This document shows positions 3,421-10,629 of a DNA stretch of 63,064 nt, one piece after another. The position numbers and the translations under genes were made by a program. The stretch covers positions 1-63,064 of the forward strand of contig JAEOSK010000014.1 of NCBI GenBank assembly GCA_016840405.1, written 5' to 3'. The notes under the pieces were generated by a model, which made no database searches, was not told the DNA's origin, and saw only the letters and a list, made by a program, of their open reading frames with translations. Positions within the stretch are counted from its first letter, which is position 1; every line of letters starts with the position of its first letter. Source of the stretch: Candidatus Hermodarchaeum yapensis (GTDB taxonomy: Archaea; Asgardarchaeota; Hermodarchaeia; Hermodarchaeales; Hermodarchaeaceae).

Positions 3421-4464
3421 CTAATAACGTGGACGTTTCTTCGGATAAGGCTGGAAGGGTGTTCGCGGTTCCAAACTAAACCAATCAATCTCTTGGTCAA
3501 GCCGAGATAACGACCGCAATATGTCGAAAGTAATCCACCTAGATACTTCCGGAAATCGCTGATATTCCCAGAGCCCATAAGGACCCTGCAATTCCTTGAC
3601 AAATTCGACATTATCAGCGACACGGGGATCTTCCAAGCTGGCTCCAATCCGCCAGGACAAATCTAACATCTGAGCGACATCATAACGTTTGAAATAGGTA
3701 AAACCGCCACGGACTTGTTCAGTCCCCACGATTCGTGCTACTTCGAATCCAAGGGTATGTGCTTGACGGTGTTCATGTGCTAGCAACTTGTCTAATCCAC
3801 GACGGGCAGGTTCGCTGTTTCGTCGATTCGGATGTAGAGCCAAAGAACTCACTGCTGCTGTCGTATTCGTACGACACCCAAATTTTGAATGGGCGAGTCG
3901 ACGATACCCTGCTGCAAAGATGTACCTATCCTCGTGCCTACCTGATGGCCACCCACCTTCAGCTAATTCTTCCTTTAAGAGCCACTCATAGGCCGCTTCG
4001 GCACGTGGATCCGTAGCAAATCCTGCCCACGCTAAACCCAATAATGGCAAAGCTGTTTGAACCGGTATGGCATGGTACTTGATATCAAAAAATCGACCGC
4101 CATCAAGGACCGCTCCCTGAAAGGATAATGGGAAAGAACCATCTTTTTGTTGTTGGGAAAAGATAAACTCTGCAGCCCGTTTGATATCAGGATGTTCTGG
4201 TCCCAAACCGAAATAGCCCAATCCCATCAATGCTTGAGCCGTTATTCGAATTCGACCTAACGCTGCCCCTCCAGCTTCACCAACTCTGAAGCCCCCATCC
4301 TTGTCTTGCAGGGCTAGAAACCGCTTAATTAAGGGATCGGTCTTCTGAAGGTCTTTGAGTTCTTTGACTTCCTTATCAGATTCTGGGCGATTCAGTAAAT
4401 CTCGTAATACTAGTAATCGTAAACTGGGAGATGAATCTGCAAGGAGAAGTGGTGCCCACGTCAT
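3421..4464 (-). CDS. Prenyltransferase/squalene-cyclase (QW) repeat alpha-barrel protein, function unknown
   Basis: Repeats QDKDGGF, QQKDGSF, LAEGGW, QGPYGLW; C-terminal SRWITFDILRSL; no DxDD motif; ATGA overlap with the upstream gene. Confidence 0.75.
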   Translation of the reverse strand: MTWAPLLLADSSPSLRLLVLRDLLNRPESDKEVKELKDLQKTDPLIKRFLALQDKDGGFRVGEAGGAALGRIRITAQALMGLGYFGLGPEHPDIKRAAEFIFSQQQKDGSFPLSFQGAVLDGGRFFDIKYHAIPVQTALPLLGLAWAGFATDPRAEAAYEWLLKEELAEGGWPSGRHEDRYIFAAGYRRLAHSKFGCRTNTTAAVSSLALHPNRRNSEPARRGLDKLLAHEHRQAHTLGFEVARIVGTEQVRGGFTYFKRYDVAQMLDLSWRIGASLEDPRVADNVEFVKELQGPYGLWEYQRFPEVSRWITFDILRSLSRLDQEIDWFSLEPRTPFQPYPKKRPRY

Positions 4465-7400
4465 GATTTCACTCCCAACACTTCTCGGATATAAGGTGCA
4501 GTGGGTGTATTCTTCATCGCGATGTCTTCAGGGGTTCCCGTGGCAATGATTTTCCCACCCTCAGGCCCTCCACCTGGACCGAGTTCAATAATCCAATCGC
4601 AAAAAGATAGCAGGTGCGGGTGATGTTCAACCACAATGACGGAATGACCTTCGTCAACTAGTCGATTCAAAACGGTTACCAATCGGGCGACATCGTCCAT
4701 GTGTAAACCCACTGTGGGTTCATCCATTATGTAGAGTGTTTTTTCTCGGATTTTCTTAATTAGTTCTTTAGCGATTTTTAGGCGCTGCACTTCACCGCCG
4801 GAAAGGGTATAGGCATATTGTCTCCAAACCAAATATCCTAAACCCACTTGCCGTACAACCTCAAGAGGCTCTGCAAGTCCTTTCTCATCTTTGAAGAGCT
4901 CATACACTTCATCCAGTGTCATCGAATTGATGTCAGGTAATGTGACCCCCTTCACTCGCACATCCCATGCCTCGGGACGATAGCCTGTCCCCTTACACGT
5001 TTCACACTCTACAAACTCATTAGGTAAAAATCCCATATCTAATCGAAGTTGACCTCGTCCTTTACAAGCCGTGCATCGCCTCGTAAGGTCTTTCTCACCA
5101 AGTTCTAGGGCTTGAGCATCATCGCTGTTTAGAAAGATTTTCAGTAAAGGTCGAGTCAGATTAAGATAGCCTGCTGGACTCTGAATTCCTCGCCTAGATT
5201 GGTCAACTAGCAAAGTACGTTTTGGAGGATTGCTAATTTCCTCGTATTCTCCTGCTTCAAGTGGTTCACGGGCAAAAGATGACGTATGCAATTGTTTGAC
5301 TAGAGCTCGACCGACAGTATCGATGAGGAGTGAGCTTTTACCAGATCCCGACACGCCACAAACGCCTGTTAACGTTTCTAAGGGGATTTTCACATCTTCT
5401 CCACGAAGATTATTCGCACGAGCGCCTTTAATCACCATCCAGTCTGGTGGTTGTCGGCGCTGTGTTCCGTTCATCCATTCTAATAATCCCCCTTCCTGAG
5501 TTGGTTTTTTCAATTGATCATTTTGTAACCATTTTCCCGTAATCGTGTCAGCTTTGATAATATCTGTGGGTTTTCCTTCGCTGACAACTCTGCCACCCAT
5601 CGTTCCAGCGCCAGGTCCAAGATCAATCACATGATCCGCCGCTCGAATAAGAAGTAAGTCGTGCTCGACAACAATTACGGTGTTTCCTTCGTCACGGAGT
5701 TCTTCTAGTGCTTCACGCAGGGCTTCAAGTTCAGATGGGTGCATACCTCGTGAGGGTTCGTCAACAAATATTGTCAGTGAAGTTAATCCACTTCCTAGCA
5801 AGCTTGCTAGTTGGATTCGTTGTGCTTCACCCGCTGACAAGGTGCCCGTTGGACGATTCAGATGAAGGTAACCAATTCCTACTTGTCTCAGAAACCGTAA
5901 CCGTCGTCGGATAATCTGAAGACTCGTCTCAGCCAAAGGAATGCTAGAAGATGGTTCGAGGATTTTCTTGACCAGTTTTTCAAGTTCCAGAAGGGGCATC
6001 TCACTTAATTCAAACATATTCTTGTTCTGTAGAGTTACAGCCAAGTATTCTGGTCGGAGTCCAGCACCCTTACATTCTGGACAGACAACTTGTTTTGTAT
6101 ACGTCCCATGGATATCCCAATCGAAAATCCAGCTCTCCTTCTGGTAGAAGCCCCTCCAGGTCCACTTGGAAGGACGTTCCTTCCCCTTCAATCTACCAGC
6201 TGATTTGCTGATGTATGTAAACCTGTATACTTCACCATCGCCATAGAAGAAGACATCCTGTGCTTCTTTGGACATTTTATTCCACGGCGTTTTGAAGGGA
6301 TCAAACCCATACCGTTTCCCCAATTCCGGAATGATTGGCTGATCCTTACACAGATAGGTTTTCGGCCAATAACCTGGAGACCACATCGCACCTGCACATA
6401 ACGGCTTTTCGGGATTCACTATGAGCTTCTCAGGTTGAGGTAGATGTAATACACCCAGTCCTACACATTTCGGACAAGAACTCCCCCAATGCTCTGATGA
6501 GAAGTACTGTGGTTTTGCAATAGGTACAGTGTTATGACATTTTGGGCAAACCCATTTGTTCTCGCGGTTCATCTTTGAACTACATTTCAAACATTTCCTT
6601 TCTCCCAGGGAGGCAAGTAGGTTCGTGATATGATAACTTATCTCCGTAAGGGTTCCAACACTATTCCGTCGAGTGAATTGTGGGATATGACTCCATAAAT
6701 GGGCTCGATGAGGCGCCACCGTGAGCGTGACCCCTAATCCTGTGATTGAATCAACAGGGGCTTCGGCCCCCTCTCGTAATCCCTGCCTTTCAAACATGGA
6801 AAGCGATTCTAAATATCGACGTCGTGCTTCTGCCTGCAAGACATCACGTACTAGACTAGATTTCCCAGAACCCGACACACCAGTGATGACAGTGAAGGTT
6901 CTCTTTGGGATATCCACATCGACGTTTTTCAGATTGTTTGCTCGAGCATTTCGGATTGAAATTATTGGTGGTTTGGTTATCACTGGCTTCTTAGTCTTCT
7001 TTCGAGGTCGAACAGCGCTTTCATCTTCCAAGGCTTTACCAGTCAGAGAAGATTCAACCTTAAGAAGACCTTCAGGTGGACCTTCATACAGAAGCTTGCC
7101 TCCGTTTGGTCCAGCACCAGGACCCAAATCAATTACCCAATCCGCTGCGCGAATGAAATCCATGTTATGCTCAACAACCACGATTGTTGCACCATGACGG
7201 ACAAGCCGGTCAAGAACGGTCAGTAATCCATCCAAGTCTTGAGAGTGCAAACCAGTCGAAGGTTCGTCAAGAATGACGAGTTGATTTGCCAACTTTTTAC
7301 GACCCAGGAATTTCGTGAGTTTCACACGCTGTGCTTCTCCACCAGAGAGAGTGGGTGAAGGTTGCCCAAGTTCAAGATAGCCCAGCCCGACATCAAGAAG

Positions 7401-9389
7401 CGCTTGGAGAATCCGTTGGGCTGATTGCCGTTTGGCTTGTGTAAGGTGTTTTGACTTGGTAATTCGTTCTTCAATTTCAGCAATTGGAAGGGCATAGAAA
7501 TCAGCAATGGAGAGCCTTTCTCCATCAAATTCAACCAGTTCATTTAGGACTTCAGGACTAAATCGTTGTCCTTCACAATCTGAGCAGGGAATCCAGATGG
7601 ACGGTAAATATCGCATCTTGACTTCGCTTGCACCAATTCCCTTGCATGTCGGACAAGCACCTTCAGGTCGATTAAACGAAAAATGAGACTTGGATAATCC
7701 TGTCGCACCCGAATACAAATCACGAATGATATCCGATAACTTCGTATAGGTTGCCGGATTAGAACGCGGATTACGTCCAATCGGACTTTGATCCACCATG
7801 ACCGGTTTTAGTTTCGGCCCTTCAATTCCTGCACAGCCAATTGACTCTTTTTTCTTCAATGAAGGCACGAGAACATGCTCAACTAGCGTGCTTTTCCCAG
7901 ATCCAGATACTCCAGTAATAACCGCCAATCGCCCTAGTGGAATTTTCACATCAATGTCCTGCAGATTGTGACGGTGTGCCTTCTGAACATGAAGAAACTT
8001 TTCTGGTTGGGGACGCGGCTCAGGAGTCATCACACGGTTCCGGAGACTGAAATATCGTCCCGTTGCCGTGTCAGCTTTCCATAGTTCTGCTGGTGAACCA
8101 ATGAAAATCACTTCTCCTCCATCTTTACCTGCACCAGGACCAAGATCAATAGCTGAATCAGCAGAAGCAGCCGCCACTCGGTCATGTTCAACAAAGATTA
8201 CCGATCCAGATAATTCGCGAAATGCAGGAAGTAATCGAGCGACATCTGCAGGGTGCTGACCAATCGTCGGTTCATCTAGTACGTGAAGCATGTCCTCTAA
8301 TCGACTAGCCAGTGAAATTGCGAGCCTCACTCTCTGGGATTCACCCCGAGATAAGGTTGGAGATGATCGATTCAAGGAAATATAACCGAGTCCCACACGT
8401 TCCAGGGCATCTAACCGCCGTTGAATCTCCGAGCGTAGTCGGGTTGCGGTAGAAGGAAGGCTCACATCTAAAAACAACCTCTGTGCTTCCTCCACTGAGA
8501 GTGCTAGCAGTTCAGGGAAGCGCATCCCTTCCCAGCGGACGCTTGATGCCTGAGGATGCATCCCTGTGTTATCACATCGCTCACAACCTTTTCCTTTGCA
8601 ATAGGGACACAGCTGGTTGAAATGCGTAGGTCGCACTTCGCGGAAGCCTGTTCCACAGACGCTACAGGTTTGTGTTGTAGTGAGCATCATATCGGTTGTT
8701 TTACCACAGGCTCGAACAGCTCCTGCACCTAATGCTGTCGTTCTCTGTGCAAAAACTCTCACCTGCTTGACTGTCCCGGTCTTATCGATGACTCCCGTTT
8801 CAACTTCAATTGAGTGATAATCTTTGGGATTGAGGGGTTTCCCATCCCACTCTTTCCCATTAACAATTACCTGGCGTTTCTCAAATTCTTTACTAAACAC
8901 CTTGAGGAGCGTGGTATGACTCCCCTGCACGCTTTGGACTAATGGTGCAAACAGCTGCAGGGGTTCCTGTTTGGATAACGCGACGAGCCTTTCCACCAAT
9001 TCGTCCTCGGTTAACACCATCAGAGGGGCTCCACATTGAACACAGTATCGAACACCATAATTTGCAAACAGCAATCGGAAGAAAGGGTGTAACCCCGATG
9101 CGGAAGCAAGAATGGAGAGTGGATTGCGATTCAACAGATTCTGGCCAACAGCAATTGTGGGTCCCAACCCAGCGATTGACTCAACACTCGCAGGGGCTAG
9201 CCGTTCACCACTGCGACCATACAAAAAGACATCCAAAAACCGTCTGTGTGCCTCATGGTACAATGTGTCAAAGACTAGGGACGTCTTACCAGATCCCGAA
9301 ACTCCTGTGACCACTGTAAGACCATCACTGAGTTGAACATCGATGTTTTTGAGGTTGTGTTCTCGAGCGCCTTTTATGTGGATGTCCAT
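4461..9389 (-). CDS. uvrA: Double-length UvrA-like ABC ATPase (two fused UvrA modules, four ATPase domains)
   Basis: Four Walker A GVSGSGK(T/S)(S/T), four signatures LS(R/G/A)GE(S/A/V)QR, four DEP Walker B, four VEH loops, GAREHNLK-type starts, several CxxC zinc modules. Confidence 0.93.
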   Translation of the reverse strand: MDIHIKGAREHNLKNIDVQLSDGLTVVTGVSGSGKTSLVFDTLYHEAHRRFLDVFLYGRSGERLAPASVESIAGLGPTIAVGQNLLNRNPLSILASASGLHPFFRLLFANYGVRYCVQCGAPLMVLTEDELVERLVALSKQEPLQLFAPLVQSVQGSHTTLLKVFSKEFEKRQVIVNGKEWDGKPLNPKDYHSIEVETGVIDKTGTVKQVRVFAQRTTALGAGAVRACGKTTDMMLTTTQTCSVCGTGFREVRPTHFNQLCPYCKGKGCERCDNTGMHPQASSVRWEGMRFPELLALSVEEAQRLFLDVSLPSTATRLRSEIQRRLDALERVGLGYISLNRSSPTLSRGESQRVRLAISLASRLEDMLHVLDEPTIGQHPADVARLLPAFRELSGSVIFVEHDRVAAASADSAIDLGPGAGKDGGEVIFIGSPAELWKADTATGRYFSLRNRVMTPEPRPQPEKFLHVQKAHRHNLQDIDVKIPLGRLAVITGVSGSGKSTLVEHVLVPSLKKKESIGCAGIEGPKLKPVMVDQSPIGRNPRSNPATYTKLSDIIRDLYSGATGLSKSHFSFNRPEGACPTCKGIGASEVKMRYLPSIWIPCSDCEGQRFSPEVLNELVEFDGERLSIADFYALPIAEIEERITKSKHLTQAKRQSAQRILQALLDVGLGYLELGQPSPTLSGGEAQRVKLTKFLGRKKLANQLVILDEPSTGLHSQDLDGLLTVLDRLVRHGATIVVVEHNMDFIRAADWVIDLGPGAGPNGGKLLYEGPPEGLLKVESSLTGKALEDESAVRPRKKTKKPVITKPPIISIRNARANNLKNVDVDIPKRTFTVITGVSGSGKSSLVRDVLQAEARRRYLESLSMFERQGLREGAEAPVDSITGLGVTLTVAPHRAHLWSHIPQFTRRNSVGTLTEISYHITNLLASLGERKCLKCSSKMNRENKWVCPKCHNTVPIAKPQYFSSEHWGSSCPKCVGLGVLHLPQPEKLIVNPEKPLCAGAMWSPGYWPKTYLCKDQPIIPELGKRYGFDPFKTPWNKMSKEAQDVFFYGDGEVYRFTYISKSAGRLKGKERPSKWTWRGFYQKESWIFDWDIHGTYTKQVVCPECKGAGLRPEYLAVTLQNKNMFELSEMPLLELEKLVKKILEPSSSIPLAETSLQIIRRRLRFLRQVGIGYLHLNRPTGTLSAGEAQRIQLASLLGSGLTSLTIFVDEPSRGMHPSELEALREALEELRDEGNTVIVVEHDLLLIRAADHVIDLGPGAGTMGGRVVSEGKPTDIIKADTITGKWLQNDQLKKPTQEGGLLEWMNGTQRRQPPDWMVIKGARANNLRGEDVKIPLETLTGVCGVSGSGKSSLLIDTVGRALVKQLHTSSFAREPLEAGEYEEISNPPKRTLLVDQSRRGIQSPAGYLNLTRPLLKIFLNSDDAQALELGEKDLTRRCTACKGRGQLRLDMGFLPNEFVECETCKGTGYRPEAWDVRVKGVTLPDINSMTLDEVYELFKDEKGLAEPLEVVRQVGLGYLVWRQYAYTLSGGEVQRLKIAKELIKKIREKTLYIMDEPTVGLHMDDVARLVTVLNRLVDEGHSVIVVEHHPHLLSFCDWIIELGPGGGPEGGKIIATGTPEDIAMKNTPTAPYIREVLGVKS

Positions 9390-9531
9390 CAGTATCTTCT
9401 CAGAATAAAACGTGGCTCACTATTAGTTTTTGCAGTAACAAAATTTTCCTCATAAACGCATAAAGCCAAACAGAGACCATACTAAAAGTAATTATCTTAA
9501 ACGGTGACAACTTAAACTCCTTGATTGGTAG

Positions 9532-10017
9532 ATGCACATGAGTGATGTAGTATTGGGAAAAGGAAAAAGACTCCTTCTCATGGGCAGTAAAGCCTTCGAA
9601 GACAGGGAATTACCCGAAGAAGTGAAACGACGAATAGATGCCGCTATGGAGCAAGAGATGATTATTATTGTCGGAGAAGCTAAGGGAGCCTCCCATCTTT
9701 ATCAAGACCACTTACAGAGTAAAAACTATCGTGATGTTATTGTTGGACATGCTCGTAGTTTACGCTACAACGCTGGCAATTGGTCCGATATCAAATATGG
9801 TGACAATCTTCGGGAACGCGAACGTAACATGATTGAAGATTGTGATGCTGCCATCGTCATCTGGATGAACAAGAGTAGTGTTATCGCAGGGAACTTGGAA
9901 CGCTTGAAATGGCTGGATAAACCCACATTTCTCTATGACTGCTCCATTTACACCGAAGAGTTGTATGCTGGTCCTCTGGATCAAAACCGAATTTATGAGC
10001 CCTATCTCTCTCAATAA
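9532..10017 (+). CDS. Putative SLOG-superfamily (YspA-like) nucleotide-binding protein
   Basis: LLLMGS, IIVGEAKGA and R.RNMIEDCDAAIVIW..KS pattern typical of YspA-like SLOG proteins. Confidence 0.55.
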   Translation: MHMSDVVLGKGKRLLLMGSKAFEDRELPEEVKRRIDAAMEQEMIIIVGEAKGASHLYQDHLQSKNYRDVIVGHARSLRYNAGNWSDIKYGDNLRERERNMIEDCDAAIVIWMNKSSVIAGNLERLKWLDKPTFLYDCSIYTEELYAGPLDQNRIYEPYLSQ

Positions 10018-10182
10018 CTGCTTACAAAATATGGCAAAACACCAAGTACCAGTGAAAAATAAAATGAATCGGTCAGGCAATAACCTTCTTATTTGTTAAG
10101 AGAAGCTCAAGTGCCCGGGTGTGTGAAACACCGTTGCTTACCTTTTAAATAGCATCATGGGCGCGTGGCTTTGGGGATATCG

Positions 10183-10629
10183 ATGTCTGAACATCTCTAT
10201 ATTCCAATAGATCAATTAGATTCAGGTTTCCAGCAAATTATTCCAGAAGGAGCGACCATCCTATACACTACTCGCGCTAACGTACTCAAACGGGGTATGG
10301 GTGCCCATAAAAAATCGGGCTTCGTTGTCGTAACCGACCAGGGTATCGCATTTCACGCAGCCAAGACAGGGCTCTTTGAAATGTCTATTGTCTCAATGGC
10401 TGCAGGAGCACTTGCTGGTTTTATTCCATGGTCATCTATTGACAAGTTCAACAACTACAAAGACAAAATCCAAGTCAAACACGTTTTACCCGACAATCCA
10501 AAGAAGAAACTCGAATGGTTCTTCAAAGCCGAACGATGTAAAGATCATGGTGAAGAAAAGGGTGACTTTGAAGGGCGTAAGAAAGGATTTGGTCCCTTCG
10601 TCGAAGCTCTTTACAAACAAAACAAGTGA
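10183..10629 (+). CDS. Hypothetical protein, possible PH-like fold
   Basis: GFVVVTDQGIAF and IPWSSIDK pattern; TTTTAAATA box upstream; followed by a terminator. Confidence 0.6.
   Translation: MSEHLYIPIDQLDSGFQQIIPEGATILYTTRANVLKRGMGAHKKSGFVVVTDQGIAFHAAKTGLFEMSIVSMAAGALAGFIPWSSIDKFNNYKDKIQVKHVLPDNPKKKLEWFFKAERCKDHGEEKGDFEGRKKGFGPFVEALYKQNK

Follow-up and report, generated by a model that had tools for sequence, protein, structure and literature searches.

An asymmetric double UvrA encoded together with a predicted toroid partner in Candidatus Hermodarchaeum yapensis and other archaea and bacteria

The stretch analysed here (referred to as the window) comprises 63,064 nucleotides of contig JAEOSK010000014.1 from the Asgard archaeon Candidatus Hermodarchaeum yapensis, whose genome is represented by a 2.7-Mb assembly that is 86% complete. 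It contains two overlapping minus-strand genes, one encoding a UvrA protein of double length (P0001) and the next a small protein related to squalene cyclases (P0002, the toroid), which together form the module that is the subject of this report. The nearest relatives of the module proteins are found in Promethearchaeota assemblies, both Hermod- and Odin-labelled. The principal features, each an open reading frame (ORF) or a short element read directly from the sequence, are as follows.

4461-9389, minus strand: double UvrA P0001, ORF of 1642 aa
3421-4464, minus strand: toroid P0002, ORF of 347 aa
4461-4464, minus strand: ATGA stop/start overlap of P0001 and P0002, read directly

At the junction the minus strand reads ...GTG AAA TCA TGA CGT..., so that one ATGA holds both the stop codon of P0001 (TGA) and the start codon of P0002 (ATG), and the sequence GGGAG stands about 8 nt upstream of this overlap. 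A first-pass annotation of the window, made from the nucleotide sequence and its ORFs, had reported the overlap together with the positions of both ORFs and of a third, divergent one (P0003, discussed further below); the ORF list and a reading of the minus-strand sequence agree with it on all of these points.

The association of the two genes was surveyed in 22 genome loci retrieved with P0002, with further divergent toroid clusters and double UvrAs used as separate starting points. Of these 22 loci, 21 count as carrying a double UvrA directly upstream of the toroid gene, and in 17 this double UvrA is full-length. Only the C-terminal part of the double UvrA is present at three others, up to an assembly gap (L018, L022) or up to the contig end (L027); at L025 an assembly gap sits exactly at the place of the upstream gene, and at L030, a stretch of only 3 kb, no double UvrA was seen beside the toroid. 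Loci L018, L022 and L025 were considered as counter-examples to the pairing and rejected as such, because their gaps (runs of 100 N) fall exactly at the double UvrA. For all six divergent toroid clusters (34-45% identity) the upstream gene overlaps the toroid gene, and on contigs of sufficient length this gene can be seen to be a double UvrA (1607 aa at L031, 1651 aa at L039). When the double UvrAs of Acidobacteria and Anaerolineae were taken as starting points, the toroid gene was the next gene after each of them. The 4-nt stop/start overlap recurs in distant relatives of the pair. Clustering of all ORFs in 27 loci revealed no third conserved gene, and upstream synteny, P0003 included, is limited to Asgard loci. 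The neighbouring aldo-keto reductase gene was considered as a co-transferred component and discarded (the Acidobacteria copy is only 27% identical). The pairing of the two genes is thus far beyond chance, and double UvrA and toroid are obligately co-encoded wherever the DNA could be judged. The first-pass annotation had made its proposal of a coupled pair depend on conservation in other genomes, and the gene-neighbourhood survey finds the pair conserved in every assessable locus.

The upstream gene encodes two unlike UvrA units in a single chain, the parts of which are listed here from the N-terminus.

7020-9389, minus strand: module 1 (half 1), residues about 1-790/805; UvrB-binding-like domain kept, insertion domain gone
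8604-9071, minus strand: UvrB-binding-like domain of module 1, residues ~107-262; predicted toroid docking site
6954-7019, minus strand: inter-module linker, residues 791-812; variable, basic and Pro-rich
4464-6953, minus strand: module 2 (half 2), residues about 806/813-1642; insertion domain kept, UvrB-binding domain gone
6084-6464, minus strand: insertion (DNA-binding) domain of module 2, residues ~976-1102; PF17755 UvrA_DNA-bind, E 2.7e-7

Both halves are matched by TIGR00630 in a search of the genome, and UvrA entries of the Protein Data Bank (PDB) match each half at 1e-154 to 1e-158. All four sets of Walker A, signature, Walker B and H-loop motifs are present, and the key ATPase residues are invariant in an alignment of 17 family members extending down to 41% identity; the earlier description of P0001 as two UvrA units with every ATPase motif set intact is therefore correct. 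Signatures 1 and 3 read LSRGE and LSAGE, as against LSGGE. These signatures, belonging to the first nucleotide-binding domain (NBD-I) of each half and located at residues 346-350 (~8340-8354) and 1184-1188 (~5826-5840), are fixed in the family in their altered form. By analogy with UvrA geometry they would complete the two 'distal' ATP sites, so that these sites may hydrolyse differently. The two halves are 35% identical to each other, and each is 37-40% identical to the genome's own UvrA, indicating an old, maintained fusion and no recent duplication.

Half 1 aligns to the Geobacillus UvrA chain at positions 24-301 and 413-953 (2-285 and 401-922 of TIGR00630), skipping the insertion domain, which is replaced by a short Zn knuckle formed by the invariant cysteines C261/C264/C269/C272; these represent both halves of zinc module 2 joined together. 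The UvrB-binding-like domain of this half is flanked by the Zn1 cysteines 116/119 and 242/245, scores 21.8 bits with PF17760 (under the cut-off of 23.3) and is the least conserved folded part of P0001 (mean 0.47). The linker at residues 791-812 has the lowest conservation in the protein (0.33) and showed no notable family match. Half 2 aligns to Thermotoga UvrA at 4-129 and 243-913 (2-128 and 247-924 of TIGR00630), and in place of the UvrB-binding domain it has an 11-residue loop between C933/C936 and C948/C951, all four of which are invariant. Its insertion domain sits between the Zn2 cysteines 972/975 and 1103/1106 and is well conserved around residues 1001-1040 (0.79). The Zn3 modules are intact in both halves. 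P0001 is therefore a covalent, asymmetric UvrA pseudo-dimer in which the domain losses of the two halves are complementary. The first-pass annotation had judged each module too short to carry a full UvrB-binding domain; this loss stands for module 2 and was a misjudgement for module 1, which aligns through the domain and keeps a diverged copy of it, visible as the weak PF17760 match.

The downstream gene encodes the toroid, in which two regions are singled out below.

3859-3912, minus strand: basic loop AGYRRLxHSKFGCRTNTT, P0002 residues 185-202; family-specific and almost invariant; candidate functional site
4348-4452, minus strand: N-terminal helices of the toroid, P0002 residues 5-39; predicted contact surface together with residues 294-309

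P0002 matches squalene-cyclase repeats (PF13243, 1.8e-11), its family profile matches squalene-hopene cyclase (SHC) at 2.7e-28, and QW-like repeats can be recognised in its sequence, which contains neither DxDD nor DDxxD; of the initial assignment as a prenyltransferase/squalene-cyclase-repeat protein lacking DxDD, the squalene-cyclase repeats and the missing DxDD are upheld. In one repeat register the DxDDTA of SHC aligns to IPVQTA at residues 133-138. Matches to the protein prenyltransferase beta subunit are weak (PF00432 at 21.7 bits, under the cut-off; PDB entries at E 0.09-2; Z 10.7). The structural model (predicted local distance difference test score, pLDDT, 80; predicted template modelling score, pTM, 0.83) suggests a single (alpha/alpha)6 toroid, the nearest structures to which are SHC (Z 15.5; root mean square deviation 4.1 over 236 residues), the thioester domain of complement C5 (14.8) and drimenyl diphosphate synthase (14.8). 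The CGEQ thioester motif is absent from P0002, and the sole invariant cysteine lies in GCRTNTT.

This cysteine belongs to the basic loop, in which G186, Y187, R188, S193, C197, R198, N200, T201 and T202 are invariant among members down to 34% identity. Residues 184-195 are modelled with low confidence, as might be expected of a loop that becomes ordered on a ligand or partner. The toroid family is small and tight (about 12 full-length clusters at E <1e-55 among 1.84 billion representatives), and conservation is higher in the toroid than in the double UvrA. One Asgard toroid gene (G162:C4:240644-241678) has an in-frame TGA, for which a pseudogene, a sequencing error or recoding are all possible.

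We modelled the complex of P0001 residues 103-265 with P0002, each with its family alignment, in three runs. The interface score (ipSAE) was 0.79, compared with 0.18 for the best control; this mark is reached by 58 of 80 solved complexes and by 2 of 110 mismatched pairs, counts that give only a rough benchmark because custom alignments were used. The runs agreed in at least 55% of contacts, with a partner pLDDT of at least 79. No similar complex was found among solved structures, where the toroid is related to cyclases and thioester domains, so the high score is unlikely to reflect a memorised structure. On the P0001 side the predicted interface comprises residues 150-161, 164, 188, 194, 215-223 and 239-241, and on the P0002 side residues 5-39 and 294-309; it includes the family-invariant residues G156, S157, H158, L161, L220 and G221 of P0001 and L8 of P0002, as well as L20 and E32 of P0002, which are nearly invariant. 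The toroid is thus predicted to dock on the UvrB-binding-like domain of half 1, where UvrB sits in canonical repair, and in this position it would lie near half 2. The basic loop at residues 185-202 falls outside the predicted interface, indicating that the toroid has two conserved surfaces.

The relation of the pair to canonical repair was evaluated from the uvr genes of the genomes that carry it. As the first-pass annotation had noted, neither uvrB nor uvrC lies in the window; both are on contig C41, where a compact uvrB-uvrA-uvrC block of bacterial type (C41:19919-26875) is complete, with all three proteins over their family cut-offs. The double UvrA is therefore an extra in this genome. 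Searches of the Bathyarchaeota genomes G003 and G004 (the latter a 1.3-Mb chromosome-level assembly), both of which carry the pair intact, found no canonical UvrA, UvrB or UvrC, and in two further genomes (G006, G007) no UvrB or UvrC was found. UvrB is encoded in the genome of the window and in three other genomes tested. On one Bathyarchaeota chromosome (G008:C1:1465190-1472894) uvrB precedes a tandem of two canonical uvrA genes, both full-length, and no uvrC scored over the cut-off.

The named carriers of the module include Asgard archaea, Bathyarchaeota, Anaerolineales and other Chloroflexota, Desulfobacterales or Desulfatiglandales, and Acidobacteria. Within the phylum of the window the toroid occurs in 40 of the 201 genomes searched, namely in 15 of 18 genomes of the window's own family and patchily in four other families, and it was not found in 22 families. 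Toroids from the window's family share 73-80% identity with the Bathyarchaeota and Anaerolineales copies and with that of one Desulfobacterales bin, but only 45-55% with copies from other Asgard families. A quick tree has very short branches between the domains, with one bacterial row nested among Bathyarchaeota, and together with these identities it indicates recent transfer between archaea and bacteria. No match to the toroid was found on plasmids, phages or IMG/VR viral contigs.

Three loci outside the window's lineage merit separate description. On an 8.4-kb contig of a Desulfobacterales metagenome-assembled genome (L019), the double UvrA is nested, with a very short branch, among those of Bathyarchaeota, reflecting either a very recent transfer or a mis-binned contig. 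At L031:3181-9014 (and also at L032 and L033) a divergent version of the pair (41% and 34% identity) occupies the cargo position of a conjugative element, flanked at L031 by TcpC and NlpC/P60 genes on one side and by genes for a WYL regulator, sigma-70 region 4, HTH_16 and a large serine recombinase on the other. At an Anaerolineae locus (L044:1-14340) a HisKA_3/GerE two-component system and an FtsX-type ATP-binding cassette (ABC) exporter directly precede the pair, and a flavin reductase resembling Old Yellow Enzyme follows it. The arrangement at L044, a single case, resembles the drrAB-plus-drrC order of drug-resistance loci.

The remaining elements at the locus in the window are the spacer upstream of P0001 and the divergent gene beyond it.

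9390-9531, no strand: divergent spacer between P0001 and P0003; 142 bp, AT-rich; presumed promoter region
9532-10017, plus strand: SLOG/LOG-like gene P0003, ORF of 161 aa; a neighbour, judged to lie outside the module

P0003 had been labelled a putative YspA-like SLOG gene and counted as part of the system; the label is weak, and the second proposal does not survive. Its match to PF10686 (YspA/YAcAr, SLOG) is faint (E 0.087; 13.1 bits, cut-off 28.2), and its model (pLDDT 84) has a LOG-like fold, nearest to LOG at a template modelling (TM) score of 0.59, ShosA at 0.53 and DprA at 0.49 (TM 0.5-0.6 overall), with all Foldseek E values >0.001. The protein has 341 relatives of ~160-176 aa with no Pfam domain, and all host names given among those listed are Asgard; the copy in the window ends about 13 residues before most of them. 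P0003 stands beside the pair in seven Asgard loci, is missing from the Asgard loci L011 and L016, and is absent from all bacterial and Bathyarchaeota loci of the pair. In more distant Asgard genomes (L046, L047) its relatives are surrounded by ribosomal, selenocysteine or tRNA genes, and no double UvrA is close by. We therefore rejected P0003 as part of the module: it belongs to an Asgard-wide family found in unrelated neighbourhoods, and it is a neighbour by lineage synteny, standing beside the pair only in the window's own lineage. Further along (10165-10629, plus strand) an ORF of 154 aa with no Pfam match is kept in nine Asgard loci, between DUF3788 and SLOG-like genes. The other neighbours of the pair in the window encode a peptidase, an aldo-keto reductase, a flavodoxin and DUF proteins, that is, a metabolic setting and not a defence island, and no antibiotic biosynthesis cluster surrounds the pair in the window.

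Taken together, these results lead us to propose that the two proteins form a DNA-surveillance complex whose work involves neither UvrB nor UvrC, a reading to which we give about an even chance of being right. The double UvrA would scan duplex DNA by ATP-driven conformational testing, as UvrA2 does; the pseudo-dimer would stall at a distortion (a bulky adduct, a crosslink or a bound compound) and present the site to the toroid; and the toroid, held at the place of UvrB, would bind or process the lesion or ligand through its Arg/His/Cys loop and barrel cavity, so that the DNA would be protected or the damage tolerated. The first-pass annotation had suggested a pseudo-dimeric UvrA in a single chain that acts with a partner outside nucleotide excision repair (NER), and this gains support here from the predicted binding of the partner and from the presence of the pair in genomes in which UvrB and UvrC were not detected. 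Two precedents are Ecm16, which gives resistance to echinomycin by its ATPase and without UvrA-D (PMC9328131), and a second UvrA of Porphyromonas whose gene shares a transcript with that of a non-NER protein (PMC3747172). We regard as tentative, and as falling short of an even chance, the fuller proposal that the toroid replaces UvrB, with the pseudo-dimer delivering distorted DNA to a non-helicase ring protein that resolves or captures the lesion or compound by means of its Cys/Arg loop, in a new pathway that dispenses with UvrC incision and is exchanged between archaea and bacteria in anoxic sediments, also on conjugative elements.

Several observations weigh against the proposed surveillance complex. 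The genomes that appear to lack UvrB and UvrC are gapped metagenome assemblies, so that the absence is probable and not proven, and with a uvrB-uvrA-uvrC operon in the genome of the window the double UvrA may use UvrB here. The predicted docking domain is the very part of the folded protein that is least conserved (the value of 0.47 given above), conservation at interface positions exceeds that elsewhere only modestly (p 0.06 and 0.03, the latter for the toroid), and the benchmark for the complex score is a rough one. Both function and binding are read from sequence and models. The toroid lacks the cyclase acid motif, its key loop is modelled at low confidence, and the ligand is a hypothetical one.

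The proximity of P0001 to ordinary UvrA raises the question of whether it loads one UvrB through its single UvrB-binding domain, followed by UvrC, in a variant of NER in which the toroid plays an accessory part, for instance as a lesion-specific adaptor. Alkyltransferase-like proteins are lesion-specific adaptors of this kind for UvrA. Such a variant would account for the UvrB-binding-domain homologue kept in module 1, for the closeness of both halves to class I and not to the UvrB-independent class II, and for the UvrB genes in the window's genome and the three others tested. We nevertheless consider it rather unlikely, given that genomes with an intact pair were found with no UvrB or UvrC, that the UvrB-binding-like domain is under its Pfam cut-off and is the fastest evolving, that the toroid is predicted to occupy this domain, and that a complete canonical UvrA is already encoded in the genome's uvrB-uvrA-uvrC operon. 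The predicted docking would also suit a toroid that is a non-catalytic regulator or stabiliser, capping a vestigial UvrB-binding domain (and so blocking UvrB or Mfd, or holding the shape of the pseudo-dimer) while the double UvrA alone displaces DNA-bound compounds in the manner of Ecm16 and DrrC. Ecm16 confers echinomycin resistance through its own ATPase only, with no need for any of UvrA-D (PMC9328131), and a non-catalytic role would agree with the missing cyclase acid motif; on the other side, the toroid is the better conserved of the two proteins, and its nearly invariant Arg/His/Cys loop lies away from the interface, which argues for a function of its own, and we judge a regulatory toroid to be unlikely.

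Horizontal movement of the pair between domains, and the variant carried as conjugative-element cargo beside a WYL regulator, bring to mind anti-phage or anti-plasmid defence, with the double UvrA sensing foreign or modified DNA and the toroid as effector or adaptor. An ABC ATPase with a separate effector is common in defence, and P0001 matches the PADLOC models mad3 (2e-121) and mad8; MAD3-MAD4 is an ATPase-nuclease pair (PMC13662399). The mad3 match, however, arises through the shared ABC fold, no other mad genes were found nearby in the window, and PADLOC has no model that matches P0002 or the SLOG-like P0003. The pair comes without a nuclease, TIR, Sir2 or membrane effector, its metabolic neighbours in the window form no defence island, and searches of phages, plasmids and viral contigs did not turn it up. 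Its proteins are 70-90% identical across phyla and domains, an unusually close resemblance for a defence gene, and we think a defence role quite improbable. That the two genes share an operon with no joint function is far harder still to believe, in view of an adjacency kept at 34% identity, in two domains of life and in unrelated neighbourhoods, mostly with the 4-nt overlap.

The proposed UvrB-independent complex, if correct, bears on how damage recognition is divided within UvrA. For decades, work on UvrA has dealt with a symmetric homodimer from which UvrB takes over the DNA. Here a natural single chain has one docking domain and one DNA clamp, so that the separate roles of the halves have been fixed by evolution, and the lopsided double UvrA offers a ready-made tool for studying asymmetry in damage recognition. 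We know of no earlier link between the toroid fold and DNA repair. Should lesions or DNA-bound toxins indeed be handled in the absence of UvrB and UvrC, this would constitute a new protection route, one common in sediment Asgard archaea, Bathyarchaeota and Chloroflexota and able to move between domains, in at least one lineage on a conjugative element.

Judged from sequence comparison, the module appears to be a variant of UvrA with a putative functional partner, a pair that was not found in the literature searched; nor did that literature yield a description of any fused UvrA paired with a toroid protein. The closest relatives are the class I UvrAs (TIGR00630 / NF001503; PDB 2r6f, 3pih, 3zqj, 9gxk), with which each half of P0001 shares two ABC ATPase domains with intact motifs, the signature domains, the Zn3 hairpin module and the Zn1/Zn2 knuckles. 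The alignment to UvrA and Ecm16 suggested in the first-pass annotation places both halves nearer to class I, with higher scores to class I structures than to the class II proteins DrUvrA2 and Ecm16, and with a UvrB-binding-like domain kept in half 1 and an insertion domain in half 2. A class I unit, in contrast, has both domains in about 940 aa, whereas P0001 fuses two units in a chain of 1642 aa with one domain of each kind, has the signatures LSRGE/LSAGE and an obligate toroid partner, and occurs in carriers with no detected UvrB or UvrC. Its best stretch per half (509-539 bits) is under the TIGR00630 cut-off of 729.8, and the whole protein passes NF001503 only by summing the two units. The long chlamydial-type UvrA (NF001885, 1809 positions) is likewise of double length, but P0001 covers this model only partially and reaches 897.7 bits against a cut-off of 3054, and we rejected the assignment to that type on this score. 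A duplicated 'class III' UvrA was reportedly mentioned by Goosen and Moolenaar (2008).

The class II UvrAs (DrrC; Ecm16, PDB 7sh1; Deinococcus UvrA2, PDB 2vf7) resemble P0001 in being paralogues additional to canonical UvrA, in their likely UvrB-independent action, and in the lack of a UvrB-binding domain, which in P0001 applies to half 2 (PMC9328131, PMC3167621). They differ in that half 2 keeps four Zn1 cysteines that are absent in class IIa, that half 1 keeps a UvrB-binding-like domain, and that P0001 is a fused double unit with a partner and no antibiotic cluster around it. The uvrA-PG1037-pcrA operon of Porphyromonas gingivalis, in which a second UvrA paralogue is co-transcribed with a non-NER protein and has been linked to the protection of DNA under stress (PMC3747172), provides a parallel for a UvrA paralogue beside a non-NER partner gene; there, however, the partner is a 67-kDa SWIM zinc-finger protein, a helicase gene is included and the UvrA is of single length (PMC3747172). 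The toroid, for its part, shares the (alpha/alpha)6 fold and QW-like repeats with class II terpene cyclases (squalene-hopene cyclase, drimenyl diphosphate synthase, MstE), from which it differs in being a single barrel of 347 aa with P-V-Q-T in place of DxDD, and it has the same predicted fold as the complement/alpha-2-macroglobulin thioester domains (C5 being the example with Z 14.8), but without their CGEQ. What sets it apart from both cyclases and thioester domains is the family-specific basic loop with its invariant cysteine and a DNA-repair ATPase as partner.

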